From a bacterium (lineage in GTDB: Bacteria; Patescibacteriota; Doudnabacteria; UBA920; VMFF01), in the NCBI GenBank assembly GCA_021811585.1, contig JAJZOG010000007.1, positions 57,459-121,458 of the forward strand: a stretch of 64,000 nt of DNA. Direction: 5' to 3'. How positions within the stretch are numbered: position 1 is the first letter of the stretch; every line of letters starts with the position of its first letter. The notes below the pieces were generated by a model. The model worked only from the letters and a program-made list of their open reading frames with translations, was not told the DNA's origin and did no database searches. This document shows, one piece after another, positions 3,164 through 58,192 of this stretch. The position numbers and the translations under genes are program-made.

Positions 3164-5380
3164 ATGAACAGAAAATCAGAAGAATTGCTTGAAGGATTAA
3201 ATGAAAAACAAAGGGAAGCGGTTACAGCGCCGCTTGGCCCTGTTTTAGTGCTTGCGGGCGCCGGCTCGGGCAAGACAAAAGTGTTGACGCACAGGATTGC
3301 CTATTTAATTTCGGAAAAAATATTTGCGCCTGAAAATATTTTGGCGCTAACTTTTACGAACAAAGCTGCCAAAGAAATGCAGGGCAGAATAGTGCGGCTG
3401 GCGCAAGGCAGCAGCAGCGGTGCGGGCATGGCGGCTGGCGCGGATTATTACGCCAACCGCGCGAGAAATTTATTTGCCATAAAAGGAATGCCTATAATGG
3501 GGACGTTTCATTCTATTTGCGCAAGAATTTTGCGCAATGAAATAGCAGCGCTCGGCTACACCGGACATTTTACGATTTGCGACGATGACGACCAAAGCAA
3601 AATCATAAAAGAAATTTGCGCGGAAAAGAATCTCGGCCCGAGATTCGCGCCCAGCTTGATTTTGAATTGCATTTCCAAAGCGAAAAATATGCTGCAGACT
3701 CCGGAGGAATTTGATTTGCGCTTGGATGCGTTTTTTTCCAACACAATCCGTGAAATTTACGCCGGCTATCAAAACTATCTTTTCAGGCAAAATTCCCTGG
3801 ATTTTGACGATCTCCTGATGCTCGCCGTGAAATTATTCCAATCGCGCCCCGAGGTTCTGGAGAAGTACCGCGGCCTTTTCAAATATATTTTGGTCGACGA
3901 ATACCAGGATACCAACCATGCGCAATATGTCCTGCTGCGCCTGCTCACGGACGGCAATTTGTTCGTGGTCGGGGACGATGCCCAGGCAATTTACGGGTTC
4001 CGCGGTTTGAATTTGCACAACATTCTTGGTTTTGAAGAAAATTTTTCCGATTGCCTGGTGATTAAATTGGAACAGAATTACAGGTCAACCAAAAATATCC
4101 TTGCCGTTGCCCAGGAAGTTATAGAGATAAACGCGGAGCAAAAAAAGAAAAAATTGTGGACGGAAAATGATTTTGGAAGCCGGATAAAAGTTGTGGAAGT
4201 GGAGGATGAAATTGAAGAAGCGAAATTCGTGGCCAAGGCAATTATCGGAAAAGCCGGGCGGGAAGAGCGTGAAAGCAGCGGTGCGGCTATCGGGGAAATG
4301 GAGTATGAGCATGAAGAAAGCGGCTTTTATGAGGACGAGGCCGCGCATGGCGCCGAAGAATCCGCGGCAAATAAATTTTCGATTCTGGATATTTTTTTAA
4401 AAAAACAAAAAGGGCATTCGCCTTTGCGCGGCTTGGGATTTTCCCTGCCGCGCTTGCCGGAAAAACACGGCACCTTGAACCAATACGCGGTTTTGTACCG
4501 TACGCACGCGCAGTCCCGCGCGCTGGAAGAGGTTTTTCTTCAGGCGGAAATTCCGTACCAAATAATCGGCGGCGTTAAATTTTATCAGAGAAAAGAAATT
4601 AAAGACGTCCTCGCTTATTTGCGCCTGGTTGAAAATTTCAGGGATTTGGTGGCGCTTAAGCGGGTGATTAACGTGCCGCCGCGCGGAATAGGAGAAAAAT
4701 CTTTCGGAGAGCTAAAAAATTTAATTTTGAACGCCAAGAGCGCGGAACTTCCCGGCTTGCGCGCGGAACTTGCCGAGATAGCGCTGGCATCCAAGCAATA
4801 TAATGCTGTCCAGGATTTTTTCCGCTTGCTTGAGGAATATTGCCAATTCTCCAAGCATGAAAATTTGAATTCGCTGATGCGCCTGGTTTTAAAAAAAAGC
4901 GGCTATGAGAATTTTTTGCGCGACGGCACGGACGAGGGTGAAAGCAGGTGGGAAAACGTCGAGGAACTTTTTAACGTCGCCGCCAAATACGCCGGCATGG
5001 CATGGAGCGACGGGCTGGCGGAATTTTTGGAAGAGGTTGCGCTGATGACCGAGGCGGATAACATGAATGACGCGCGCGATTGCGTTACGTTCATGAGTTT
5101 GCACCAGGCCAAGGGCTTGGAATTTGATACGGTTTTTTTCGTCGGCTTGGAAGAGGGCATTTTGCCGCACTCGCGTTCCTTGCTGGATCCGGCAGAACTT
5201 GCCGAAGAAATCCGCCTGGCGTACGTGGGCATTACGCGGGCGCGCAAAAATTTGTATTTGGTTTATGCGCAAAGCAGGAGAATTTTCGGAAACACGCAGT
5301 CCTTCGCCCCTTCGCGGATTTTAAAATCACTGCCCCAAGATAAAATAATTTTTAAAAGCATAAGCAGGTATGATTTATGA
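3164..5380 (+). CDS. pcrA: ATP-dependent DNA helicase, UvrD/PcrA family
   Basis: Walker A 'LAGAGSGKTKVLTHRIAYL'; motifs 'ILALTFTNKAAKEM', 'LVDEYQDTN' and 'VGDDAQAIYGFRG'. C-terminal region 'TFMSLHQAKGLEFDTVFFVGLEEGILPH...LAYVGITRARKNLYL'. Acidic insert around residues 370-400. Confidence 0.85.
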   Translation: MNRKSEELLEGLNEKQREAVTAPLGPVLVLAGAGSGKTKVLTHRIAYLISEKIFAPENILALTFTNKAAKEMQGRIVRLAQGSSSGAGMAAGADYYANRARNLFAIKGMPIMGTFHSICARILRNEIAALGYTGHFTICDDDDQSKIIKEICAEKNLGPRFAPSLILNCISKAKNMLQTPEEFDLRLDAFFSNTIREIYAGYQNYLFRQNSLDFDDLLMLAVKLFQSRPEVLEKYRGLFKYILVDEYQDTNHAQYVLLRLLTDGNLFVVGDDAQAIYGFRGLNLHNILGFEENFSDCLVIKLEQNYRSTKNILAVAQEVIEINAEQKKKKLWTENDFGSRIKVVEVEDEIEEAKFVAKAIIGKAGREERESSGAAIGEMEYEHEESGFYEDEAAHGAEESAANKFSILDIFLKKQKGHSPLRGLGFSLPRLPEKHGTLNQYAVLYRTHAQSRALEEVFLQAEIPYQIIGGVKFYQRKEIKDVLAYLRLVENFRDLVALKRVINVPPRGIGEKSFGELKNLILNAKSAELPGLRAELAEIALASKQYNAVQDFFRLLEEYCQFSKHENLNSLMRLVLKKSGYENFLRDGTDEGESRWENVEELFNVAAKYAGMAWSDGLAEFLEEVALMTEADNMNDARDCVTFMSLHQAKGLEFDTVFFVGLEEGILPHSRSLLDPAELAEEIRLAYVGITRARKNLYLVYAQSRRIFGNTQSFAPSRILKSLPQDKIIFKSISRYDL

Positions 5381-6228
5381 AAAGCGGACATAAGCATGCA
5401 AAGCCGCAATTAAGGCCGAAGCACTCTTTGGGGCAGAATTTTTTGACTGACCAAGGCGCGCTGGACGCAATTTCCGCGGCTGCGGAAATAAATTCGCGCG
5501 ACGAAGTTTTGGAGATCGGCCCTGGGCTTGGAAATCTGACCGAACGCCTTGCCGACAAGGCCGGGTTTGTTTTGGCAGTTGAAAAAGACAAAAGATTTTT
5601 TCCCATTCTCAAGGACCGCCTCAAGGAAAAACTTCAGCCGCATGCAAGGACGCCGAAAATTTCCGCAAACGTGCGCTTGGAATTTGCGGACATCATGTCG
5701 TTTAATTTTCAGAAAATTCTGAAAAGCGGATACAAAGTTGTCGCCAACATCCCTTATTATATCACGGGGCAAATTATCGAGATGCTTTTAACAGCGCGCA
5801 ACAAGCCGAGCAAAATTATTTTGCTGGTGCAAAAAGAAGTTGCCGAGCGCCTGGTGGCCAAAGCTGGGCAGGGGAGCGTGCTTTCAATTTCCGCGCAGCT
5901 TTACAGCAGGCCGCAGATGATTGCCGTGATTCCCAAAGAAAGTTTTTTTCCTGTGCCGAAAGTTGATTCCGCGATAGTGCGCATGGACGTGCTGCAGAAG
6001 CCGGCGATTGAGGTTGAAGAAAAAAAATTTTTCAGTTTGGTCAAAGCGGCATTTTCGGGAAAGCGCAAGCAGATTCACAATACGCTCAAAAAGAATTTGA
6101 AATTAAGCGCCGTGGAAGTTGATAAAATTTTAGAACAAGCTGGAGTTAGTGCCAAAGCGCGCCCCCAGGAGCTGGCGCTGGAAGATTGGGAAAAACTTTA
6201 TAGGGCATGGATGGGGATTGGTAGTTAA
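5377..6228 (+). CDS. rsmA: 16S rRNA (adenine1518/1519-N6)-dimethyltransferase
   Basis: 'LGQNFLTDQGALDAI', 'VLEIGPGLGNLTERL', 'KVVANIPYYITGQII'. Start overlaps the pcrA stop (ATGA). Confidence 0.85.
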   Translation: MKSGHKHAKPQLRPKHSLGQNFLTDQGALDAISAAAEINSRDEVLEIGPGLGNLTERLADKAGFVLAVEKDKRFFPILKDRLKEKLQPHARTPKISANVRLEFADIMSFNFQKILKSGYKVVANIPYYITGQIIEMLLTARNKPSKIILLVQKEVAERLVAKAGQGSVLSISAQLYSRPQMIAVIPKESFFPVPKVDSAIVRMDVLQKPAIEVEEKKFFSLVKAAFSGKRKQIHNTLKKNLKLSAVEVDKILEQAGVSAKARPQELALEDWEKLYRAWMGIGS

Positions 6229-6340
6229 TAGTTGGTAGATGGTAGGTGGTAGTTAATAGATGGTAGTTGGTAGTTAATAGTTAGTAGTTAAAGGTAGTCC
6301 CTTTTTAACTACCAACTACTAACTATTAACTACCAACTTA
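6219..6340. repeat. Tandem heptamer-like repeats (GGTAGTT / AATAG units) running into a ~30-bp imperfect hairpin immediately after the ksgA stop
   Basis: 'ggtagttaatagttggtagatggtaggtggtagttaatagatggtagttggtagttaatagttagtagtt' followed by its reverse complement 'aactaccaactactaactattaactaccaac'. Loop is 'aaaggtagtcccttttta'. Confidence 0.6.
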
Positions 6341-6456
6341 ACGCTGTTAAAAAAATTGGTGGTTCCTCTTGCAGAAAAATTTGAAATCTGCTATAATAAC
6401 TATAGTGAGATTGATATTTTCGAAACACAAACAAAAGACAAGTAAATAAAGGGAAC

Positions 6457-7239
6457 ATGCAAGAAATTCCAAGCCAAAACATCCGTTCGGGAACGGATTT
6501 CGGCTTTAAAAATATTGCTTTGATTGCGGTCTGCGCGGCTTTTTTGGTATTTGCCGGCTATTGGCAATATCCGGGATCTTTTCCCGGGCATTTTTCGTTG
6601 TTTAATCCGGTTTCTTCTTCTGACGGAAACTTGGCCTTGGCAACCCCGCCAAAGCCTTTTGATTTAACTTTGGCAGGAGGCGCAGACGGTGTGGGCTCAA
6701 CAATGTTTGCACAGAATAATTCGGGAAATTTGGCTCAAGGAAATTCAGCACAAGGGGTTTTGGCTCAAGGAAATTCAGCGCAGGGAAATTTACCCGAAAA
6801 TAATTTGGACCAATCCGCAGGCGCACAGACGAGCGCGGTTTTAGGTGCGACAACTTATGATAAAAATTTCGCCGAGCAGTTCAATTCCATTCCCCTCCAG
6901 CTGATTGCGGATAATTCCACGGCAGCTTTGCAAACCTATGCCGGCCAGGTAAACGCTGTCTTGCAGGCGGACAATGCCGCCGGACTTGTGAGCGCCGCGA
7001 AAAAATCCGGAGCCGAAAAAAACGGAGGCCTCAGCGCGGCGCAAAATAAATTCATACAGGATTTCCAGGCAATAGCAGTCCCTGACTCTTTGCTTGATTA
7101 TGCGCGCATGTTTATAGGCAGCTATGCCTTGCAGTTTGTGGGCGACCCGAAATTGGATGCCACAATATCGCAGGCAAATTCTGAACTGGGAATCATAAGG
7201 CAGCAAGTCCGGCAGTCCAGCCAAATCGCATTGCCATAA
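6457..7239 (+). CDS. Hypothetical membrane-anchored protein (N-terminal TM, low-complexity linker with GN(L/S)AQG repeats, C-terminal domain)
   Basis: ATG with weak RBS; TM segment 'IALIAVCAAFLVFAGYW'; tandem 24-nt coding repeats at 6720-6790. Confidence 0.5.
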   Translation: MQEIPSQNIRSGTDFGFKNIALIAVCAAFLVFAGYWQYPGSFPGHFSLFNPVSSSDGNLALATPPKPFDLTLAGGADGVGSTMFAQNNSGNLAQGNSAQGVLAQGNSAQGNLPENNLDQSAGAQTSAVLGATTYDKNFAEQFNSIPLQLIADNSTAALQTYAGQVNAVLQADNAAGLVSAAKKSGAEKNGGLSAAQNKFIQDFQAIAVPDSLLDYARMFIGSYALQFVGDPKLDATISQANSELGIIRQQVRQSSQIALP

Positions 7240-7261
7240 ATTTTTTTAAAATCTTTCAGGC

Positions 7262-8284
7262 ATGTCCAAAAAAGCTCTCATAATTTCAGGCCTCTCGGTT
7301 CTCGCGGTAATTATAATTATTGCCGTGGTTTTGGCTTTGGGCAAAAAAACGCCGCAACAGGCGCAGAATCAAAACCCAACTACCGGCACAGGAACAGTGG
7401 GGCAACAAGAGGGCCAGCAGGCGCCTCAGCAACAGCCGGCTTTCCAAATTCATACCGACAACTCGCAGCCGTACGCGGTAAATGCGCCGCGCTCCAATGA
7501 GCCGCAGCAGCAGCCACAACAGCAGCAGGCAAATTCATTAGGCCAGCAACAGCAAACACAAAAACAGCTTGCCGCCGCCATAGCCGCAGGCGTGCTTCCT
7601 GATGCCAATGGAAATTATGTCCAGAAAATAGATAATTCCGGAGTAAACCAATTTGATGTCTCACAATATAATTATGATTTGCCTGACAATCAATTCCTGC
7701 AGGCATATTATCCGGATGCATCGCAAGTAATTAACGCACAGACGCCCACTGACATGGCTTTGAATGCGCAGGACCCTGTGCTTATTAGCAGCACAAGCGG
7801 AGGATCTTCAAACACTGCTCCAGAAGCCATCCCTTTAAACAATGCCGTTGATCCAAGCCAGTTGAAGGTTTCGCAAGACAACAGTGCGGAGGCGATTAAT
7901 AATTATTTGCAGGGCCTTTCAAGTGCAACGGCGCCTTATGATGTTGTAGACAATACCGGCCTTATGAGCGCAATTGCCGGAGGCACTTCCAGCGCAAACG
8001 ATTTGAAGCAGGCGGGATCCACTGTCTCGGGAATCATAAGCCAATTAAAACAAGAACCGGTGCCAAGCGACATGCTCGGGTTGCAGCAGTCATATGTTGC
8101 AATGTATGAAAATTTAAGTTCAAGCATAAATGATGAAGAAAACATGCAAAATGATAAAAGCGCTTCGGCCTTGAATTCAGATGCCCAGGCATTCCAAAAC
8201 GATATAAATAATTTTACGGATTCGTATAGCCAGGTCGGCGACGATTTTACGATAGTGCAAAATGATTACGGAACAGGCCAATAG
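7262..8284 (+). CDS. Hypothetical membrane-anchored protein with a Gln/Pro-rich linker
   Basis: N-terminal TM 'LIISGLSVLAVIIIIAVVLAL', Q-rich low complexity, C-terminal globular region; same strand and tight spacing as its neighbours. Confidence 0.5.
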   Translation: MSKKALIISGLSVLAVIIIIAVVLALGKKTPQQAQNQNPTTGTGTVGQQEGQQAPQQQPAFQIHTDNSQPYAVNAPRSNEPQQQPQQQQANSLGQQQQTQKQLAAAIAAGVLPDANGNYVQKIDNSGVNQFDVSQYNYDLPDNQFLQAYYPDASQVINAQTPTDMALNAQDPVLISSTSGGSSNTAPEAIPLNNAVDPSQLKVSQDNSAEAINNYLQGLSSATAPYDVVDNTGLMSAIAGGTSSANDLKQAGSTVSGIISQLKQEPVPSDMLGLQQSYVAMYENLSSSINDEENMQNDKSASALNSDAQAFQNDINNFTDSYSQVGDDFTIVQNDYGTGQ

Positions 8285-9729: not shown

Positions 9730-12552
9730 TTGATTTTTGAAACAAAAAAACATAAAAAAATAAATTGGAAAGCCCTGCGAACGGTTGCATTGGCAACCGA
9801 GGTTTTTGTTCTGATTTTTGGTATGTTATTGGGCGGATTTGCCGGGCAATTGAAAGCCAAACCTGTCTTTGCGGACAATTCCAGCAGTTCCAGCGATTGC
9901 ACTGTTGCTAAAAATGGCGATTGGCTGGAGCCCACCCCTGTTTCAGCTAATATTATCACAGGAGGGCGTACCCTTACATACAATGAAAAAATGAACGCTG
10001 TTACAGCGGATGAAAATAAAGGGTATGGATCTGCTGATCCAGCTGGTAATGGAGTAGATATTCATTTTAAAGAAACCGTTTATCCTCCCGGGAATTCCGG
10101 TGATACGCACGGTGTCGGTTATGCAGACAATTCGAAATTGACGGCATATATACAGATATTATTGATAGATCCGAACGGTAAAAAAACAGACATAACGAAA
10201 AATGCTTTCGATCATGGCGCACAATATTTTCAATATGTTGACACTGGCGGAATATTCAGCAGCCCCAGTTATGAGCCAATTAGTAATCCTGGACCTGATT
10301 CGAACGGGCACTATGTATTCGATTATGTATATAATACCGATACTATAATTTCCGTCCCATTTAAATTTGTTTATTTTGGAATTACATCTGCTCCTGCACA
10401 AAATCAAAATTATCAATTGGAGGTTGATTTTGTAGCCACAAAATTTCAACTAACCCAAACTTTTTCGCCAGGAGAATATGGTTCTACAAATATTTCTTGT
10501 GAACAAGATTTTTCTCCGCCGATACAAATTAAAAATATCGGCGCGGCAGCATTAACTCTTTCAACTGCGGCTGTTCCAAATCAAGGCGGGAGTGGCGGAT
10601 CGTCGCAAGCGCTTCAAAGCACAGCAAATCCGAATGATTCGAATTTCAGCGCACTTGGGACTTTTTTGTCCGATGTTTTTGATTTTATTTTTGGGATTTT
10701 GATCAATATCTTGGTCAAAGTTTTCGGCGTCCTCGCAAATATTATTGCCGCTGTCCTTGCAATATATCCGCACCAGGCGGATTTTGCCGGAGTAATTTTC
10801 GCAAGCTGGGTGGCAGTAAGAAACATCAGCAATATTTTCTTTATGCTCGCTTTGTTGATGCTCGGCTTGGGCACAATGTTCCGTTCGGATAAATTCGGAA
10901 GCAAGGGGCTGCTTGGGACCATTATAGTAATGGCGCTACTTACGAATTTCAGCTTGGTTATTGGCAGGGCAATTTTAGGGGTTGCCGATACTTTGCAGGC
11001 GCAATTTTTGCCCGCAAACTCTCATGTTATTGAACGGCTTGGTGCTGCATTAATGCAGGGCGGATATTTAAATGCAACCTACAATTATACGGTTAGCTCT
11101 ATTGCAGGGTCAATGGCCAGCGTTATAAATAATTTTTTGTATTTGTTTATGGCCTTGTTCAGCTTCATGGCCTTTGTTGCCATTGCCGTATTGCTTGTGG
11201 TCCGCCTTGTGGCGCTCTGGCTTTTGCTTTTAACTTCACCCATCGCCTATGCAGGCAGAGTTCTCACATATACGAAAAATTATGCCTCAATGTGGTGGAA
11301 GAAATTTTTGCAATATGCCTTTTTCACGCCTATTTTAGGATTTGGCTTGCATCTCTGCGCGCTGTTTGCCGATAACCAAGGCACTTATTTGAATAATTCG
11401 CTGACAAACCAGTTGGCGCAAAACCAAGTTGTTAAAATTGGAGATTTCGGGCAGTTCCTATTTAATATTTTGAGCGGCGTCACCATTCTTGCCTGTTTGT
11501 TTATGGTTATGAAAGTTGCAAATACATTCGGAATCGCCGGCGCGAACGCGATAACAAAGCATACCACGGACAAGGTCACGGATTTGGCGCGCAAAACAGG
11601 AACAGGCGCGCGCAAAATGGCTGGCAAGCCGCTCGGAATTGCAAAACTTCAGGGAAAAAACTTTTTGGCCAGGGGCAGGGATAAATGGCAAGGAAAGCTG
11701 CTTAGGGATAAAGAGGGAAATATGCGTACCGGTGCGGCTGGTATTGCGGGCAGGGCTGTCCATCGAATTTTTAATCCGAATGCTTATTTGGAATCGGTTG
11801 AAAGAGATTTGAAAAACGAAAGAGAGGGTTTGCAAAAAGTTTCCAAGGCGCGCATTGAGGCCGGCAGGACTTTCGGGCAAACCAGCTTGGGGCGCTTTAA
11901 GCAGACCGCCGGCATTGATAATCGCGCGGACTTAAGAGAAAAGGAATCGCAGAGAGACGAGGTTGTAAAGACAATGATGACCATGAGACCCGAAAAAGTT
12001 GGCGAATATCTAAGGGCGCTCGGCAAGAATGGCAAGCTTTCGGCATCAGAGGATATGCTTAAAGAAATCATACCGGCAATGATTAAATCCGGGCAAGACG
12101 AAAAGGTTTGGCGCGATATTATAAATAAAGGCGAAACAGATCCTGCTAAGATGGTTATAAAGCCAAACGAGACGTTGACGCCGACAATGATTAATAACGG
12201 TCTTCAGGAATTGGCTGGTGATGATAAAGGGGCACTTGAAATCATTAAGAAGAGTTGTTCGGACATTGGCAAAAAAGAGGTAAATCTTATGGCAATTATC
12301 ATGGGCATTACGGATAAGGCAGAGGCCGATGCGGAATTGGCGAAATACGTAATGAGCATGGATAGCGATAAATTGAAGGAACTAAGAGACAAGAGAGTCA
12401 AGGGCATTGTTACTGAGGGCGGTTTTGACAATACGTTTGCGGCTGCCAAACAGCGGGCTGACGATATGAGCGCTTCTGACCAGAATAAATTGGATGAGCA
12501 TGGCCGCAAGTTTTTCGGCTTGCCGCCAAAAAAGAAAAAAGGACAGCCATAA
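9730..12552 (+). CDS. Large polytopic membrane protein with VirB6/TrbL-like architecture: N-terminal anchor plus ~270-aa exodomain, about six TM helices, ~300-aa charged C-terminal tail
   Basis: Hydrophobic helices 'FIFGILINILVKVFGVLANIIAAVLAI', 'FMLALLMLGLG', 'FMALFSFMAFVAIAVLLVVRLVALWLLLLTSPIAYA' and 'ILSGVTILACLFMVM'. Lys/Arg/Glu-rich tail. Lies in a VirB4-containing locus. Confidence 0.4.
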   Translation: MIFETKKHKKINWKALRTVALATEVFVLIFGMLLGGFAGQLKAKPVFADNSSSSSDCTVAKNGDWLEPTPVSANIITGGRTLTYNEKMNAVTADENKGYGSADPAGNGVDIHFKETVYPPGNSGDTHGVGYADNSKLTAYIQILLIDPNGKKTDITKNAFDHGAQYFQYVDTGGIFSSPSYEPISNPGPDSNGHYVFDYVYNTDTIISVPFKFVYFGITSAPAQNQNYQLEVDFVATKFQLTQTFSPGEYGSTNISCEQDFSPPIQIKNIGAAALTLSTAAVPNQGGSGGSSQALQSTANPNDSNFSALGTFLSDVFDFIFGILINILVKVFGVLANIIAAVLAIYPHQADFAGVIFASWVAVRNISNIFFMLALLMLGLGTMFRSDKFGSKGLLGTIIVMALLTNFSLVIGRAILGVADTLQAQFLPANSHVIERLGAALMQGGYLNATYNYTVSSIAGSMASVINNFLYLFMALFSFMAFVAIAVLLVVRLVALWLLLLTSPIAYAGRVLTYTKNYASMWWKKFLQYAFFTPILGFGLHLCALFADNQGTYLNNSLTNQLAQNQVVKIGDFGQFLFNILSGVTILACLFMVMKVANTFGIAGANAITKHTTDKVTDLARKTGTGARKMAGKPLGIAKLQGKNFLARGRDKWQGKLLRDKEGNMRTGAAGIAGRAVHRIFNPNAYLESVERDLKNEREGLQKVSKARIEAGRTFGQTSLGRFKQTAGIDNRADLREKESQRDEVVKTMMTMRPEKVGEYLRALGKNGKLSASEDMLKEIIPAMIKSGQDEKVWRDIINKGETDPAKMVIKPNETLTPTMINNGLQELAGDDKGALEIIKKSCSDIGKKEVNLMAIIMGITDKAEADAELAKYVMSMDSDKLKELRDKRVKGIVTEGGFDNTFAAAKQRADDMSASDQNKLDEHGRKFFGLPPKKKKGQP

Positions 12553-12555
12553 AAT

Positions 12556-13395
12556 ATGGATACCATAGAGCTTAAACAAATAATAAAAGACCCGGTTTCT
12601 CCCGCTGATTTTCAAACAATTCAGGATGAGGCGAGGGATTGCCTTGAATTCGGGACAATCCAGGACAAAATGGATTTTGCGGATTATATTTCCGAGATTC
12701 TTTCCGCGAACGGAAGCGCGCTGGACAAAGCCAATGCCGAAATGCTGGACCAGTATGAAACGCTTTGGGCGCTTTTGGCATTCGGCGCGTTTGTTGCTTA
12801 TCATTCCGCGGACCAGGACAACCTTATCCGCACCCGCCTGCTGTTTGCGGTGCAAAGGGGTTTTGAAACAGATGATATTATCCGCCAATATTATTATTTT
12901 TTTAACAGCGACGATTTCATCAGCTACAACTTGAAGCTTTTTGTGAAGAGTATTGAACAGAACACCGAGACACTTGGCGATTTTCCGATTTCCATCGACG
13001 GCAAGCGCATGCTGCCGCAGATAAAATATTGGGTTTTGGATTATTCCAAATATCCTTCGCTTGTTGCCAGGCGCGGCGGCGTTGAGCGGCTGAATTATAT
13101 AAACCACAGCGGCAATATTGTCCAGCTGACGCAGGTGCAGAGGCAAAATCTTTTGGAGATTTTGAAATTTTATGATGATTTGCAGAATCCTTCGCGCCCG
13201 TTTTTGAAAAACGAGAAAGCAGATGTACAAGAGGCGATTTCTGTTCCGGTTGATGTTCCGGCTGCTCCGCTGCCAAAAGTGCCACAGCCGGCGCCGCAGG
13301 CAGCTGTGCAACAAAATTTTTCCCAGCCGTTCGCAAACATACAAATAGACATTCAAGGCAAATTGGATGATTTAAGGAAAAGGACTCAAGAATAA
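12556..13395 (+). CDS. Hypothetical cytoplasmic protein in the T4SS-like locus
   Basis: ORF on the operon strand, overlapping the next gene by 1 nt; no recognisable motif. Confidence 0.45.
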   Translation: MDTIELKQIIKDPVSPADFQTIQDEARDCLEFGTIQDKMDFADYISEILSANGSALDKANAEMLDQYETLWALLAFGAFVAYHSADQDNLIRTRLLFAVQRGFETDDIIRQYYYFFNSDDFISYNLKLFVKSIEQNTETLGDFPISIDGKRMLPQIKYWVLDYSKYPSLVARRGGVERLNYINHSGNIVQLTQVQRQNLLEILKFYDDLQNPSRPFLKNEKADVQEAISVPVDVPAAPLPKVPQPAPQAAVQQNFSQPFANIQIDIQGKLDDLRKRTQE

Positions 13396-14255
13396 TGCAT
13401 GATGAAGATTTGAAAAATGCGCGCATACTAATTGAGCAAAGCAGGATTTTGTCATCCATAGAGAAGACAGAATGGCTTCAGTTATTGCCTTTGATGAATG
13501 ATCAGCAAATAAACGAGCTAATAAGGATTTTGCAGGAGCAGGTGCAAAGGCAACCCGCGGCAACACATTCAAAAGCCGCATTCTCCTCAACCACGGCATC
13601 CGCGGCGTTTAAATTGCCGGACATTGCGGAATTGGAATTGCCTCCGCCGCCCAAGCCATTAATACCGAAGGCACCGCCTGCAATGCCAAAGCCGTTTGCA
13701 CAGCAGATACAACCGCGCGAACAAGCGGCAAATGCGGAAGATGTTGCTAAAATTCTTGAACATTTTAAAACCGCGCCCGCGCTTTCGCCGCGCGCCGCTC
13801 AAGGCGCGGTTCAACAACATATGCGGCAACCCGTATCGCCGGTTCAGCCGCAAAAAGCCGCATCGCATGCATCGGGATTAAAACCCGCTGCTCCGCCGCG
13901 GCCAATGGCCGGCCAGGAATTGGTTTTGCACTCCGCGGAAGATCTAAAAAAAATTACTCCCGCCGCTCTTCATGGCAAAGACCCTTATTCGGTTTTCCAG
14001 AAAATTTTGGATTTCCTTGCAGAGCAATCAAAAACCGCCAGTGTTGTTTCCATGATCTCTTATTTAGAGCAAAGCCCAATACAGCAAATATATGTGCAAA
14101 CAGGAGCGATTTTATTGAATAGCAGCAATGCGGATGGCAGCGAAGCGGCTTTCCAAAAAATTGTGGATTCCGCCAAAGCCAGTGGTGCGCAATACATGAC
14201 CAAAGAAGAATTCGAGGCCTACGCCGATTTTAGGAAAGAGCTCGAAAAGCTGTGA
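13395..14255 (+). CDS. Hypothetical Pro/Ala-rich protein in the T4SS-like locus
   Basis: ORF on the operon strand; middle part is Pro/Ala/Gln-rich low complexity. Confidence 0.45.
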   Translation: MHDEDLKNARILIEQSRILSSIEKTEWLQLLPLMNDQQINELIRILQEQVQRQPAATHSKAAFSSTTASAAFKLPDIAELELPPPPKPLIPKAPPAMPKPFAQQIQPREQAANAEDVAKILEHFKTAPALSPRAAQGAVQQHMRQPVSPVQPQKAASHASGLKPAAPPRPMAGQELVLHSAEDLKKITPAALHGKDPYSVFQKILDFLAEQSKTASVVSMISYLEQSPIQQIYVQTGAILLNSSNADGSEAAFQKIVDSAKASGAQYMTKEEFEAYADFRKELEKL

Positions 14256-14267
14256 TATAATGAATTT

Positions 14268-14705
14268 ATGCAAGTACCAGTACCACAATTTATTGATGTC
14301 GAAGACAAAATTTTCGGCCCGTTTACTTTAAGGCAATTTGCTTTTATCTTTATTGGCGGTCTGCTTATTGCCGCGCTTTTCCGCATTTTCCACCTCTCTT
14401 TCGTTTTTTTCATTTTGGCGCTGCCAATTGCCGTAATTTTTGCTGGCATTGCTTTCGGAAATTTTAACGGCAGGCATATTTACAACACCATCCCAATTTT
14501 TATTTCGTTTTTCACATCGCCGAAAGTTTTTGTTTTTCATCGCGAAAGAATTCAGGATGAAGTCAGCATCTCAAGGCCAGTGGCAAAAACTCGGGATGCC
14601 GCAGCGCCTGTTTCCACTGAATCCCCGCGCTCACGCCTAAAGCAGTTGTCGCTTTTATTAGATCAGAAAAACCAGGAAGAGATTGAAAACTTAAAAAATC
14701 TTTAA
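14268..14705 (+). CDS. Small two-TM membrane protein, TcpE/PrgI/VirB3-like by size, topology and position just upstream of VirB4
   Basis: 'FTLRQFAFIFIGGLLIAALF' and 'FFILALPIAVIFAGIAF' hairpin TM pair, 145 aa. Confidence 0.4.
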   Translation: MQVPVPQFIDVEDKIFGPFTLRQFAFIFIGGLLIAALFRIFHLSFVFFILALPIAVIFAGIAFGNFNGRHIYNTIPIFISFFTSPKVFVFHRERIQDEVSISRPVAKTRDAAAPVSTESPRSRLKQLSLLLDQKNQEEIENLKNL

Positions 14706-14711
14706 TTCCAT

Positions 14712-15401
14712 ATGGCAAAAGTCACTGCCCCGACAACACAATCATTTTTGAAAATTGCGGAAATCAAATCCGATACTTTAATATTGAACGACGGCACTTA
14801 TTGCGCTGTTATCGTGATTTCCAGCACCAATTTCGATTTAAAAAGCCCGGAAGAGCAAAACGCGCTTATCGCAGGATACCAAAACTTTTTGAATTCTCTG
14901 GATTTTAACATTCAGATTCTGATGCAATCGCGGAAAATGGATATCCATTCCTATTTGCAGAACATGAAAAATTTAATGGAACAGCAGACCAGCGAGCTTT
15001 TGCGCGTGCAAACAGCAGAGTATATAGAATTCATAGCAAAGCTTATTGAGAATTCCAGCATTATGAGCAAGAATTTTTATGTCATTGTGCCGTATCGTTC
15101 CGGCCTGGGAGGAGGATCTTCCGGAAAAGAAAAGAAAAAAGGATTTTTTGCCGGATTATTCGGCGGCGGAAGCGGCAATGCCGGGCAGGAGCTGCAAAAA
15201 AAACTGCAAAAATTCGACACTGACCGTGAAAAATTGGATGAGCGCGCTAATGCTGTTATAGGCGGCCTTTCGGCCTTGGGGCTTAAGGCCATTGCGTTAA
15301 ATACCGAGGAGCTCACGGAACTTATCTACAATTCTTACAATTTGGATGCCGCGCCTTTAATTGATTCTTCAAAATTAAGCGAAGTGCAAATTAAGGAATA
15401 G
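14712..15401 (+). CDS. VirB4 N-terminal-domain-like protein encoded as a separate ORF; either a split VirB4 or a distinct subunit
   Basis: 'LKIAEIKSDTLILNDGTYCAVIVISSTNFDLKSPEEQNALIAGYQNFLNSLDFNIQILMQSRKMD' resembles the CagE/TrbE/VirB4 N-terminal module. The TAG stop is 2 nt before the ATG of the ATPase ORF, in a different frame. Confidence 0.45.
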   Translation: MAKVTAPTTQSFLKIAEIKSDTLILNDGTYCAVIVISSTNFDLKSPEEQNALIAGYQNFLNSLDFNIQILMQSRKMDIHSYLQNMKNLMEQQTSELLRVQTAEYIEFIAKLIENSSIMSKNFYVIVPYRSGLGGGSSGKEKKKGFFAGLFGGGSGNAGQELQKKLQKFDTDREKLDERANAVIGGLSALGLKAIALNTEELTELIYNSYNLDAAPLIDSSKLSEVQIKE

Positions 15402-15403
15402 CC

Positions 15404-17257
15404 ATGCCCATTATTGTCCCGCCAACCAGGGAAGAAATAGAAAAGAAAAAACAGGTGCTTGCGCAAGCCGAGGAAGAGCGGAAAACCACCAAAAATATTG
15501 CCGCAACCGAAAAGGAATACCGCGAAGGCCTCACCAAGCTTAAAGACATACTTGCGCCTGCCGCGCTGTCTTTCGGCAACGCTAATTTTGAGCTCAATGG
15601 AAAATTCGGGCGCAGCTTTTTCGTGCTCGCATACCCCCGCTATCTTTCATCCGACTGGCTTTCGCAGATAATAAATTTGGATACGCCCATGGACATGTCC
15701 ATGTTTATTTATCCCGTTGATTCTGCCGATATCATGAAAAAGCTCAAGGCAAAAGTCGGGCAAATAGGTTCGCAAATGGATATCCAGGCGGAAAAGGGGA
15801 ATGTGCGCGACCCGCTTTTGGAAACCGCTTACAAAGACGTGGAATTTTTACGCGACGAACTTCAACAGGGCACTGAAAAATTTTTCCGTTTCGCCTTATA
15901 TTTTACGATTTATGCCGAAAATCTGGAAGAATTGGACCAATATTCCAGCATTTTTGAAAGCACGCTGGCAGCCAAGCTTGTTATTACCAAGCGCGCGATT
16001 TTACAAACCAGCCAGGGCCTTAATTCCACTTTGCCGGTTTACGCGGATGAGCTGGATGTTGCCACGAACATGAACACTTCGCCGCTGGCAACAACTTTTC
16101 CGTTTGTCTCGGCGGATTTAAGCTCCAACGAAGGAATTCTGTACGGCATAAACCGGCACAACAACAGTTTGATTATTTTTGACCGTTTTAACATGGAAAA
16201 TGCGAACAGCGTGGTCTTCGCCAAATCCGGTGCCGGAAAATCCTATGCCGTGAAATTGGAAGTCCTGCGCAGCATGATGGTTGGCGTGGATGTGATTATT
16301 ATTGATCCTGAAAACGAATACAAACACCTTTCAGATGCTGTCGGCGGCACTTATATTAACATTTCCTTAAATTCGGATTCGCGCATCAACCCTTTTGATT
16401 TGCCGATGCCTTTGGAAGGCGAGGATAATGCCGATATTCTGCGCAGCGCGATTATCAATTTGATCGGCTTGCTTTCCCTGATGATAGGTAAAATGACGCC
16501 GGAAGAAGAATCCATTATGGATAAGGCGCTTTGGCAGACCTATGCAAAAAAAGATATTAGCGAAACCAGCGATTTCCGAAATATCAGCGCTCCGACAATG
16601 AGCGATTTGGTGGAAATACTTTCCGGCATGGTTGGCGGCGAAGGCCTGGCCCAGCGCCTGACAAAATACACGGAGGGCACATTCGCCGGCGTCTTTAATC
16701 AACCCACTAATATTGTTTTGAACAACCAGCTTGTGGTTTTTTCCATTCGCGACCTTGAAGACGAACTGCGCCCCATTGCCATGTATGTGATACTCGGGCA
16801 CATTTGGAACGTGGTGCGCTCCCAGCTTAAAAAAAGAATTTTGGTTTTGGACGAGGCCTGGATTATGATGCAGTTTGAGGACTCCGCGCGCTTTGTTTTC
16901 GGCATTGCCAAGCGCGCGCGAAAATATTATTTGGGGCTCACCACAATTACGCAGGATGTCGCGGATTTTATGGCCAGCTCCTACGGCAAGCCGATTGTCA
17001 CTAATTCTTCAATCCAATTGCTGCTTAAGCAGTCGCCGGCTGCCATTGACGTGCTTGCCAAAACATTCTTTTTAACCGAAGGAGAAAGGTATTTGCTTTT
17101 AGAAAGCGAAGTTGGGGAAGGAATTTTTTTTGCCGGCCTTAAGCACGCTGCCATAAAAATTTATGCTTCTTATGTCGAGGACCAGATTATCACAACAGAT
17201 CCGCGCCAATTGTTGGAGATCCAGCAGGCAAAAGATGAAATAGACGGGAAAGGATAA
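15404..17257 (+). CDS. VirB4/TraE/TcpF-family T4SS ATPase (conjugal-transfer ATPase)
   Basis: Walker A 'VVFAKSGAGKSYAV'; family signature 'IIIDPENEYKHL'; Walker B 'ILVLDEAWIMM'; 'GLTTITQDVADF'. Confidence 0.8.
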   Translation: MPIIVPPTREEIEKKKQVLAQAEEERKTTKNIAATEKEYREGLTKLKDILAPAALSFGNANFELNGKFGRSFFVLAYPRYLSSDWLSQIINLDTPMDMSMFIYPVDSADIMKKLKAKVGQIGSQMDIQAEKGNVRDPLLETAYKDVEFLRDELQQGTEKFFRFALYFTIYAENLEELDQYSSIFESTLAAKLVITKRAILQTSQGLNSTLPVYADELDVATNMNTSPLATTFPFVSADLSSNEGILYGINRHNNSLIIFDRFNMENANSVVFAKSGAGKSYAVKLEVLRSMMVGVDVIIIDPENEYKHLSDAVGGTYINISLNSDSRINPFDLPMPLEGEDNADILRSAIINLIGLLSLMIGKMTPEEESIMDKALWQTYAKKDISETSDFRNISAPTMSDLVEILSGMVGGEGLAQRLTKYTEGTFAGVFNQPTNIVLNNQLVVFSIRDLEDELRPIAMYVILGHIWNVVRSQLKKRILVLDEAWIMMQFEDSARFVFGIAKRARKYYLGLTTITQDVADFMASSYGKPIVTNSSIQLLLKQSPAAIDVLAKTFFLTEGERYLLLESEVGEGIFFAGLKHAAIKIYASYVEDQIITTDPRQLLEIQQAKDEIDGKG

Positions 17258-17259
17258 CC

Positions 17260-18261
17260 ATGCCTGTTGCCCAAAGCGACGATAAAATTTCGGGTGCAGG
17301 CGCTGGCATTGGCACAGGCAGAGTTTCCGGAGGCGCTTTGGGTGGCGCCAAATTTAAGGGTTTCGGGCCAAAATCGTTGCGGGGTATTATTCGAAATTTG
17401 CCGCGCGGCATAGACGGGGTGATTGCGGCGCCTGATGATGAGAAATCGCCCGGCGAGGAGGAATTGCATGCGGAGCAAGAAACTGATGACAGTGAAAATC
17501 TTGAGTATGAAAATGGCTTGGAAAATGAAAGCTACGGTATGGATGTAGACGAGGATGGGGATGAGGGCGAAGACGAGGAAGATGAAAAAGATGAAAATGA
17601 AGGCCCGAACCTGAAAGACGCTTATGATGCTTATAAAAAATATCAAGAGGAGATTCCGGAAACCGCAGAGAATGTTGAGCAGATAGGCGAGGCAACACAG
17701 ACCGCTGAAGCGGCTGAAGCTGCTGAGGGTGCGGCGACTGCTGCAGAAAGCACTGCCGCTGTTGCCGAAGGCGCTGCCGGAGCCGCAGAGGGCGCTGCCG
17801 GCGCGGCTGGTGCGGTTGCGGCAGAGGGCGGTGCAGTAGTGGCCGGCGCAGGCACCGCGGCTGCCGCAGAGGGCGCTGTTGCCGGTGAGGCGGCTTTGGG
17901 TATTGCAACAGGAGGGGTGGGTATAGTTGTTGAGATATTTGTTGTTATTCTGTTCTTGCCGCTTGTGGTTTTTTTACTCGATTGCTACCTTTTTGCAGGT
18001 TTTTTATTTCCGAATTCGCAGTTTCTGCATCTTTTGCCGACAAAAGGCGTGCTGCCCAAATTGATTATTGCCGTATTAAATATCCTTGCTTTCATTGAAG
18101 TGCTTATTCTGTATATAATTTTTTACGTAATGGTTTGCGGCGGAATTGCGGGAGTGGCTTTCAAGCTTAGTGCTTTTGTTACCGGCCAAAAATCCTTTTG
18201 CAGCGGCGGGCCTTCGGTGCCATGGAGCGTTTGGTGGCAGGGCGTTAAAGCCGCACTTTAA
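17260..18261 (+). CDS. Hypothetical protein: acidic N-terminal half, Ala/Gly/Glu-rich repeats, C-terminal ~3 TM helices
   Basis: 'DEDGDEGEDEEDEKDENE', 'AEAAEAAEGAATAAE', then 'GIVVEIFVVILFLPLVVFLL' and related TM segments. Follows VirB4 after a 2-nt gap. Confidence 0.5.
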   Translation: MPVAQSDDKISGAGAGIGTGRVSGGALGGAKFKGFGPKSLRGIIRNLPRGIDGVIAAPDDEKSPGEEELHAEQETDDSENLEYENGLENESYGMDVDEDGDEGEDEEDEKDENEGPNLKDAYDAYKKYQEEIPETAENVEQIGEATQTAEAAEAAEGAATAAESTAAVAEGAAGAAEGAAGAAGAVAAEGGAVVAGAGTAAAAEGAVAGEAALGIATGGVGIVVEIFVVILFLPLVVFLLDCYLFAGFLFPNSQFLHLLPTKGVLPKLIIAVLNILAFIEVLILYIIFYVMVCGGIAGVAFKLSAFVTGQKSFCSGGPSVPWSVWWQGVKAAL

Positions 18262-18289
18262 AAATTTAACCAAAATTTAACAAAAATTT

Positions 18290-19663
18290 ATGAACAAAAA
18301 AATATATATGTTGTTGGGAGGAATATTGGTCTTAATTGTCATAACCGTGGTTTTTATCTTTTATTTGAGTTCAAAAAATAAAGCGGCAACCCAAAACCAA
18401 ACCGCGCAACAATCGTCGCAAAATAATGGGGGATCCGGCTCAGATGGCTCTGGGAATGGTTCTGGCTCTGGGAGCGGTTCGGGCTCTGGGAGCGGTTCGG
18501 GCTCTGGGAATGGCTCTGGCTCCGGGAACGGCTCTGGTGGAAATGGCTCCGGTGGGAATGGCTCTGGCTCCGGGAACGGCTCTGGTGGAAATTCGAGCGG
18601 CAATTCCGGAAATTCCGGCCAAAGCAGTGCACCCCAATTTTTAACGGCAATTACCAATGACAAGGCAATTAGCCCTGCTCTTTCTTTTGACGGCCAGGCA
18701 ATTTGGTATTTTACCTCAAACGGCCACCTTTATAAGGAAAATTTAACCACCGGCTTGAAACAGGAAAAGCTTTTACCTTCGCAGTTACCGGTGAGCGCGG
18801 TAATTTGGCCGGCATCCGGAAATGATTTTATTGTGGAGACAGATTCATCTTCAGGGAAAACATTCAATTATTATAAAAGTTCTGACGGCACATTTACGCA
18901 ATATCCCCCGCAAGTTAAAGAGGTTGCCTTTTTGCCTGACGGCGCGCACGTGGCTTACGATTGGTCCGACAATAGCGGCTCCTATTTGAGCATCGCCAAT
19001 TCGGATTTAACCAACCATCAGACAATTGTGAAATTACCGGACAATGACGATGCGCTGCAGGTTTCTCCGACTTCGGCCAATATGATTTTGGCTTACAATG
19101 CCGCAAACGCGCAAAGCGGAAAATTATATTACATCAGGACAGACACAAAAGCCATCACAGCCATAAAAACCGGGGAAAGCAATCGTTCTGAATGGGCGCC
19201 GGACGGCGAGCATTTTTTATATTACAAATTGAATCCGCAAAACTTTTCAGACAAAGAGCTTTGGCTGGGTAATATTCAAAACGGTACGGATCAGCAGCTT
19301 GGGATTGATGCACCGTTTTCAAAGCTGAATTTTTCCGGCGACAGTTCGGATTTGTATTTCGCAACTTCAGGGGCAAACGGGGATTCTATTTGGAAAATGG
19401 ATTTGCAAAGCTTGAATAAGAGCTTGCTTTACGCTTCTTCTCCCACGCCGATTAGCGCCAGGAATTTGTTTTTGTCGGCAGATTCCGGCACTTTGTATTT
19501 TATAAATTCAGATGGATTAGTTTATGCTTTGAATTTGTCGGCCGCGCAAAACGCCTCGGGCGGCGGGAGCGCGAACAGCAGCGGCGGTATCGGCGGAAAC
19601 ACAAACAGCAGCGGCGGAACCAGTGGGAATGGGAACAGCACCGGCGGCAGCGGCGGACAATAA
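18290..19663 (+). CDS. Membrane-anchored PD40/TolB-like beta-propeller protein with a long (GSGSGNGS)n linker
   Basis: N-terminal TM; 'GSGSGSGSGSGSGNGSGSGNGS' linker; propeller-blade-like motifs 'EWAPDGEHFLYYK', 'VAFLPDGAHVAYDWSD' and 'DLYFATSGANGDSIWKMD'. Confidence 0.55.
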   Translation: MNKKIYMLLGGILVLIVITVVFIFYLSSKNKAATQNQTAQQSSQNNGGSGSDGSGNGSGSGSGSGSGSGSGSGNGSGSGNGSGGNGSGGNGSGSGNGSGGNSSGNSGNSGQSSAPQFLTAITNDKAISPALSFDGQAIWYFTSNGHLYKENLTTGLKQEKLLPSQLPVSAVIWPASGNDFIVETDSSSGKTFNYYKSSDGTFTQYPPQVKEVAFLPDGAHVAYDWSDNSGSYLSIANSDLTNHQTIVKLPDNDDALQVSPTSANMILAYNAANAQSGKLYYIRTDTKAITAIKTGESNRSEWAPDGEHFLYYKLNPQNFSDKELWLGNIQNGTDQQLGIDAPFSKLNFSGDSSDLYFATSGANGDSIWKMDLQSLNKSLLYASSPTPISARNLFLSADSGTLYFINSDGLVYALNLSAAQNASGGGSANSSGGIGGNTNSSGGTSGNGNSTGGSGGQ

Positions 19664-57361: not shown

Positions 57362-58192
57362 ATGGACGACCTTGAAATTGAGAAACAAAAAGCTGAACTT
57401 CAGGTGCAAGAGGCGGAATATAAAGCCTTTTCATTTTTCAAAGGATTTAACCGCGCTCTTTTATATTGGACATTAATTCTCCTTATTTTATCAATACCCA
57501 TTTATTTTACGTTTAAATTTTCGGTGGCCGCGCTTTATATGCGAAATTTTCGAAAGCGCGAAATCACCGCCCACCCTGCGAGCGTGGAGGCCTCAAACCT
57601 ACCCATCAACATCGTCAAATCGAAAATCCTCCCAATTTCCGGCGACCGGTACTCGGCTTATGCCATTCTGGACAATCCATATTCGCAATTGTCGGCGGAC
57701 AAAATTAATTATAGTTTCTATTTTATCGGCAGTTCCGGCCAAGATATCGACACTGAAAGCGGCCAAACTTTTTTATTGGCAGGCCAAAGGAACAAGCTGA
57801 TAATTATTCCGGATGTGGCTCTTCGCACGCCGCCCTCGTCTCTTAGAGTTGAAATTTCCAAGCCGGATTGGAAATATAAATTAAACCTTCCGGACGTAAT
57901 TTTAGACGCCGCCGCGCCAACTTATGGCGACCAGCAAAATCCGAACGGTTTTTCGGTTTCCGGGACCGTGAAAAACGCAACCGCCTATAATCTTGGCTCG
58001 GTTGTCGTTAAAGCTGCCGTATATGATGCCTCCGGCAAGATCATCGCTGTGACGCAAAGCATTCTTGGAAAAATGTCGGCGCACCAAACCCAAACCTACA
58101 CGCTTTATTGGCCAATTTTTTTGCAGGCAAAAGTCCAACGAGTTCAAATTATTCCGGAGACGGATATCTTGGATCCTCAGAATGTCCGGTGA
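57362..58192 (+). CDS. Hypothetical membrane-anchored protein
   Basis: TM 'LLYWTLILLILSIPIYFTF'; TATAAT 7 nt upstream of the ATG. Confidence 0.5.
   Translation: MDDLEIEKQKAELQVQEAEYKAFSFFKGFNRALLYWTLILLILSIPIYFTFKFSVAALYMRNFRKREITAHPASVEASNLPINIVKSKILPISGDRYSAYAILDNPYSQLSADKINYSFYFIGSSGQDIDTESGQTFLLAGQRNKLIIIPDVALRTPPSSLRVEISKPDWKYKLNLPDVILDAAAPTYGDQQNPNGFSVSGTVKNATAYNLGSVVVKAAVYDASGKIIAVTQSILGKMSAHQTQTYTLYWPIFLQAKVQRVQIIPETDILDPQNVR

Follow-up and report, generated by a model that had tools for sequence, protein, structure and literature searches.

A conserved two-gene form of VirB4 in a chromosomal type IV secretion locus of a Doudnabacteria genome

The window analysed here, a 64,000-nt stretch of Doudnabacteria DNA (contig JAJZOG010000007.1 of assembly GCA_021811585.1, forward strand, positions 57,459 to 121,458), carries a type IV secretion system (T4SS) locus in which two adjacent open reading frames (ORFs) together resemble a single VirB4, the ATPase of such systems. 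The upstream ORF is referred to as A and the downstream ORF as B, and all coordinates without another reference are positions in the window:

14712-15401, + strand: A, a TrsD-like or 'TraC-like' (PF26593) protein of 229 aa, with its stop codon TAG at 15399-15401
15404-17257, + strand: B, a short-form VirB4 ATPase of 617 aa, CD1110-family-like and the counterpart of TrsE/TraE of pSK41
15393-15406, + strand: the A/B gene junction, of the translational-coupling type, with AAGGA at 15393-15397, TAG at 15399-15401, CC, and ATG at 15404-15406

That the first ORF stops at a TAG 2 nt before the ATG of the second, which lies in another frame, was pointed out in a preliminary description of this DNA and is borne out by the ORF map and the raw sequence. 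That description left three readings standing: a recent frameshift that turned virB4 into a pseudogene, a naturally split VirB4, or a site of programmed frameshifting.

By its sequence B is unambiguously a VirB4-type ATPase. It matches P-loop_TraG (1.2e-21), AAA_10 (4e-10) and DUF87 in Pfam, and it scores 356.6 bits against the NCBIfam CD1110-family VirB4 profile (cutoff 325, 2.7e-106), aligning with positions 172-728 of 752. Among PDB sequences it matches the VirB4 C-terminal domain 4ag5 (9.5e-45) and TrwK (4e-6). By residue count, the Walker A (KSGAGKS) and Walker B (ILVLDE) motifs lie at ~16220-16243 and ~16838-16855, respectively. Other T4SS membrane components are encoded next to it: a PrgI gene that scores above its cutoff and a gene with a weak TrbL/VirB6 match. 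B keeps ~270 residues ahead of Walker A, including a weak CagE_TrbE_VirB match, and is without a complete N-terminal domain; its alignments begin only at position 172 of the CD1110 profile, residue 186 of the fused VirB4 of Carboxydocella and position 233 of TIGR00929.

Profile comparisons place A at the opposite end of VirB4. It aligns with the CD1110 profile at positions 2-119 (1.8e-5) and with the Mbov_0397-family VirB4 profile at positions 103-233 (8e-11). It also aligns with the NCBIfam TrsD/TraD family NF041427 at positions 23-142 (E 2.6e-5), with 24.2 bits against a 200-bit cutoff. Because an hhalign comparison of the A family with TrsD of pSK41 gave a probability of only 8.5%, we retain membership of the TrsD family as a remote homology. 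The PF26593 assignment is precomputed for A and for all of its 120 top homologues; our own Pfam-A hmmscan of A returned no match even at E <= 10, and a search of PDB sequences with A gave chance-level matches only. In a predicted structure, which was modelled from an alignment of database homologues only, the top PDB match of A is TrwK/VirB4. The protein starts with a VirB4-like portion of ~130 residues, continues with a disordered linker rich in G and K (~129-156), and ends in a helical region that includes a long helix at 157-188. It fits the TrsD/TraD arrangement, in which a stand-alone protein of ~200-300 aa is encoded downstream of a VirB3-like gene and directly upstream of a short VirB4. 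We found 2308 database homologues of A, of which the best 120 are all 203-241 aa long; ORF length is conserved, with a median of 227 aa. The nearest homologues of both A and B come from metagenome-assembled genomes (MAGs) of Doudnabacteria and other Patescibacteria. In close orthologue pairs with unsaturated dS, the dN/dS of A is 0.015-0.05, by which measure A is under strong purifying selection.

The relationship between the two ORFs is clearest against a fused relative, the 754-aa VirB4 of the Carboxydocella plasmid pCCELLA01. Residues 10-130 of A align with residues 12-131 of this protein (6e-13) and residues 48-606 of B with residues 186-750 (1e-64). Because both align to the one protein without overlap, A and B are, as judged from these alignments, colinear, non-overlapping pieces of one VirB4, and the first ~130-170 VirB4 residues, absent from B, are supplied by A. 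The preliminary description had taken A for the N-terminal membrane-proximal domain of VirB4; homology to the VirB4 N-terminus stands, but A covers no more than ~130 residues at the start of the fused protein. It had also proposed to look for the break at a domain boundary by alignment to full-length VirB4, and the break instead sits in a variable linker, away from the point where the N-terminal domain gives way to the ATPase domain. This linker has ~55 residues in the fused protein (131-186) and ~146 here (A 131-229 plus B 1-47), in addition to the stop and restart, so that the junction of A and B carries ~90 residues more than fused VirB4. A and B cover the whole of the fused monoderm VirB4 proteins (CD1110 family/CTn2, the Mbov_0397 family and the pCCELLA01 protein) colinearly, and differ from them in being two ORFs rather than a single polypeptide.

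At the junction, the TAG of A is followed by CC and the ATG of B, which lies in the +2/-1 frame relative to A, and a Shine-Dalgarno (SD)-like AAGGA stands 6 nt upstream of the B start. A TAA at 15392-15394 closes the frame of B, so both frames are open over only 7 nt (GGAATAG, 15395-15401), and this shared stretch contains no slippery heptamer of the form X XXY YYZ. The suspicion of a homopolymer-length error near 15395-15405 did not hold up: no homopolymer longer than 3 nt occurs at 15385-15410, and the junction is identical in two other assemblies, one from ENA and one from Logan. The boundary between virB4 and the next gene, which encodes a 333-aa protein (17249-17264), has nearly the same design, AAGGA-TAA-CC-ATGCC as against AAGGAA-TAG-CC-ATGCC at 15393-15408. 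From this similarity, the boundaries that flank virB4 look like a reused termination-reinitiation cassette.

B homologues were found at 80 loci in a search of one genome per species. Every locus comes from a Patescibacteria MAG, with labels that include Doudnabacteria, Moranbacteria, Berkelbacteria and 'Saccharibacteria'. An A homologue lies directly upstream of virB4 in 73 of the 80, and the two are fused in none of these 73. The distance from the A stop to the B start ranges from -4 nt (an ATGA overlap) to more than 500 nt: the genes overlap at 6 loci, and the gap is 0-30 nt at 29, 31-100 nt at 17 and more than 100 nt at 21. The relative frame is 0, 1 or 2 in 20, 29 and 24 loci, respectively. 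As termini, both the end of A and the start of B are conserved in the junction sequences of these relatives. One relative (L004) shares the TAG-CC-ATG geometry exactly, with an identity of only 55% in A and 78% in B, which indicates that the geometry is stable. Complete unrelated genes, either a four-helix-bundle gene (TIGR02436) or a GxxExxY gene (TIGR04256), occupy the spacer in at least 10 species, which rules out that a translational fusion is needed. Given three relative frames, spacers of several hundred nucleotides and inserted unrelated genes, A and B can be translated independently of one another.

These comparisons establish, at the level of sequence, that A and B are separate, conserved and selected genes that are independently translatable and jointly equal to one VirB4. 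Of the three readings offered earlier, the naturally split VirB4 is the right one, in agreement with the colinear match to fused VirB4 and with the two-gene form in 73/80 loci; the results jointly reject a pseudogene, a sequencing error and programmed frameshifting. The recurrence of that form also indicates that A is a separate subunit, as the preliminary description had allowed if orthologues showed two genes with independent ribosome-binding sites. The latter half of its test turned out to be uninformative, because an SD-like motif upstream of virB4 is so rare in this clade (5/73 loci).

Two virB4 genes, in L060 (5233-7791) and L064 (5272-7785), were considered as fused forms and rejected. 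Their upstream extensions of ~250 codons are of low complexity (Q/N-rich or S/V/Q-rich) and contain no A domain, and no adjacent TrsD-like gene was found at either locus. One is labelled just 'bacterium' and the other is a Gracilibacteria MAG, and the absence of an adjoining TrsD-like gene fits the published remark that TrsD is unlinked from virB4 in Gracilibacteria (PMC12102498).

Cassettes of ~400-530 nt are found at the trsD-like/virB4 spot in L030 (5543-5970), L007 (5550-6000), L028 (5547-6000), L054 (5410-5901), L035 (5504-6000), L051 (1543-2021), L006 (202-684), L032 (2827-3310), L040 (5512-6000) and L016 (1664-2188). All five cassettes that were checked are flanked by imperfect inverted repeats of 20-57 nt that are 74-94% complementary, with arms 364-384 nt apart, and several shorter spacers (L010, L052, L048, L036) seem to retain repeat remnants only. 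One of the inserted families, TIGR02436, we take to be the 23S-rRNA intervening-sequence (IVS) protein family. Because two unrelated small-gene families land repeatedly at one boundary, the sequences suggest that the trsD-like/virB4 boundary is an insertion hot spot for IVS-like mobile cassettes.

The two-gene form extends beyond the Patescibacteria. In Bacillota, a tblastn search of plasmids with A recovered homologues that stand alone, each encoded immediately ahead of a short VirB4; the sizes and gene order of these, together with pSK41, are as follows:

Pontibacillus: 274 aa, then a 621-aa CD1110-family ATPase, with overlapping genes
Clostridium perfringens pJFP838A: PrgI, 312 aa, 641 aa
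L. sphaericus pBsph: PrgI, 307 aa, 669 aa
Sulfobacillus pY0017: 231 aa and 606 aa, with a 2-nt gap as in the window
pSK41: a gene for a TrsC-like small membrane protein, trsD (227 aa), and TrsE (672 aa, DUF87/VirB4)

The staphylococcal pGO1/pSK41 systems (MPF_FATA, pGO1 subclass) resemble the window in order and sizes, with TrsC-like, trsD and TrsE corresponding to PrgI, A and B (145/229/617 aa), and B is colinear with TrsE of pSK41 from the N-terminus (4e-38). They differ in that the similarity of A to TrsD is remote and far below the family cutoff, and in that pSK41, a conjugative plasmid, encodes a relaxase and a VirD4-like protein, whereas the locus in the window is chromosomal. A further observation comes from the Halobacterium noricense plasmid NZ_CP089470 (L083), where a 367-aa protein (4626-5729) has a region similar to residues 9-129 of A (E 3e-4) and is encoded directly upstream of an 838-aa 'transfer complex protein' (5759-8275). 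Judging from this match, the split arrangement may extend to archaeal conjugation systems.

The two-gene form, a TrsD-like gene followed by a short virB4, is already published, and the window is one more example of it rather than a discovery. Quinonero-Coronel et al. 2025 (PMC12102498) describe TrsD as remotely homologous to the VirB4 N-terminus, and the idea that a TrsD-like protein stands in for the N-terminal subdomain that VirB4 lacks has thus been put forward before. We cite the homology statement from that paper only, since the name 'TrsD' is absent from the main text of Guglielmini et al. 2014 (PMC4027160). Homologues of VirB4, TrsD, PrgI/VirB3 and VirB6 are widespread in Patescibacteria, and TrsD is the most abundant T4SS component recovered there, with 2,272 homologues of which 1,664 are associated with virB4 (PMC12102498). 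The Patescibacteria T4SS is regarded as an established, essential system in a 2025 review (PMC12857230) and epibiotic growth reportedly depends on it (PMC12102498, PMC12857230). A TrsD copy is essential in Ca. Southlakia epibionticum ML1, according to Wang et al. 2023 as reported in PMC12102498. The chromosomal T4SS of Patescibacteria described in PMC12102498 is the same system as that of the window locus, with no substantive difference. No VirB2-like pilin cluster was identified in the window, where no search aimed at one was made. VirB3-VirB4 fusions occur in some Gram-negative systems, and none was found in Patescibacteria (PMC12102498). The likeness to our locus is that a module of VirB3, VirB4 N-terminus and VirB4 ATPase tolerates varied states of fission and fusion; the difference is that those systems show fusion and ours fission, with no VirB3-VirB4 fusion in the window.

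We consider it very probable that A and B constitute a conserved two-gene VirB4, in which separate but coupled polypeptides are made and A completes the N-terminal domain of B. Among the alternatives, the one that survives best is that A derives from the VirB4 N-terminus but is now an independent T4SS accessory, such as a chaperone or an adaptor that serves substrates or the VirB6-like protein. In its favour, the modelled structure of A has a weak resemblance to secretion chaperones, and in Gracilibacteria TrsD is no longer linked to virB4. However, A is held in very tight synteny directly upstream of virB4 in most lineages, A and B are complementary in their coverage of fused VirB4, and the best structural match of the A model is VirB4 itself. 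We therefore regard an independent accessory as unlikely.

Programmed -1 ribosomal frameshifting, which would give a fused full-length VirB4 beside the short products, is far less credible. The position of B in the -1 frame of A, with the genes 2 nt apart, speaks for it, but the TAA at 15392-15394 leaves it only the 7-nt overlap and no slippery site, the relative frame is not conserved among relatives, and many of these have long spacers or an inserted gene. Least probable of all, to the point of being negligible, is that a recent frameshift mutation or a sequencing or assembly indel broke a continuous virB4, for which only the geometry of a stop 2 nt before an out-of-frame ATG speaks; against it stand the absence of fused orthologues, the conserved termini and ORF length, the low dN/dS of A, the lack of homopolymers, the agreement of the two assemblies, and the ~90 extra residues at the junction, unlike the outcome of a simple 1-nt indel.

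The two genes belong to a compact gene cluster, whose other members are as follows:

9730-12552, + strand: candidate VirB6/TrbL-like polytopic membrane protein of 940 aa, with a large N-terminal extracytoplasmic region
12556-13395, + strand: 279-aa protein, encoded between the VirB6-like and PrgI genes
13395-14255, + strand: 286-aa protein, also between the VirB6-like and PrgI genes, with a 1-nt overlap (TAATG) with the gene for the 279-aa protein
14268-14705, + strand: PrgI family (VirB3-like) small membrane protein of 145 aa (PF12666), directly upstream of A
17260-18261, + strand: downstream gene for a 333-aa protein whose N-terminal half is acidic, rich in Ala and of low complexity and whose C-terminal part is hydrophobic
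18290-19663, + strand: downstream gene for a 457-aa protein that begins and ends in long (GSGSGN)-type repeats and may have a beta-propeller core

In a Pfam scan, the PrgI ORF matched PF12666 at 4.4e-8 (34 bits against a 27-bit cutoff). The product of 9730-12552 is tentatively a VirB6/TrbL-like protein by its sequence, with a TrbL match (PF04610, E 0.0058) below the cutoff and a weak precomputed match to PF19590 (TrbL_3). This candidate is unusually large: a ~300-residue N-terminal region precedes its polytopic membrane core, and its C-terminal tail is long and charged. A family scan of the 279-aa and 286-aa proteins (12556-14255) returned no matches, and that of the 333-aa and 457-aa proteins returned sub-threshold matches only, which do not establish T4SS membership. 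The setting is chromosomal, with the housekeeping genes for UvrD, KsgA, RadA, RecG, ClpB, ThrRS, DnaE and GatA/B as neighbours, and scans of the window for Rfam families and tRNAs gave no match at the A/B locus. Among the large window ORFs scanned, neither a relaxase nor a coupling protein turned up, which agrees with the published view of a T4SS co-opted for a non-conjugative role. A cell-wall hydrolase with LysM and CHAP domains is encoded at 1646-2806 on the - strand, ~7 kb upstream of the T4SS genes, and the tra cluster of pSK41 also holds a gene for a CHAP-domain protein. By analogy, the hydrolase could be the VirB1-like hydrolase of this T4SS, or it could be unrelated.

We propose the following course of events for a two-gene VirB4. 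A and B would be co-transcribed in a compact + strand operon that spans at least 9730-19663, in which gene boundaries elsewhere are likewise tight (a 3-nt gap and a 1-nt overlap). Translation of B would start by termination-reinitiation, coupled to the stop of A at AAGGA-TAG-CC-ATG. A would then bind B non-covalently and so rebuild a complete VirB4 N-terminal domain. By analogy with VirB3, whose role is to anchor VirB4 to the membrane (PMC12102498), the rebuilt domain would dock the ATPase hexamer onto two membrane proteins encoded upstream, the VirB3-like PrgI and the VirB6-like protein.

For annotation, this means that the two genes should be named as a TrsD-like/TraC-like protein and a VirB4; a pseudogene flag, a merged gene or a recoding site would be wrong. 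The TrsD-like subunit is the most widespread T4SS component of the Patescibacteria, and its colinear and structural match to the missing VirB4 subdomain suggests a concrete, testable role for it. A more speculative extension, which we hold to be rather doubtful, is that the fission is itself functional, the TrsD-like subunit being an adaptor that can dissociate and so governs the timing with which the VirB4 hexamer engages the PrgI/VirB6 membrane platform. The ~90 extra residues (the G/K-rich linker, helix 157-188 of A and the charged N-terminal helix of B) would then form a reversible docking interface. If this is true, the essential, relaxase-less T4SS of the Patescibacteria would gain an assembly switch that one-piece VirB4 proteins lack.

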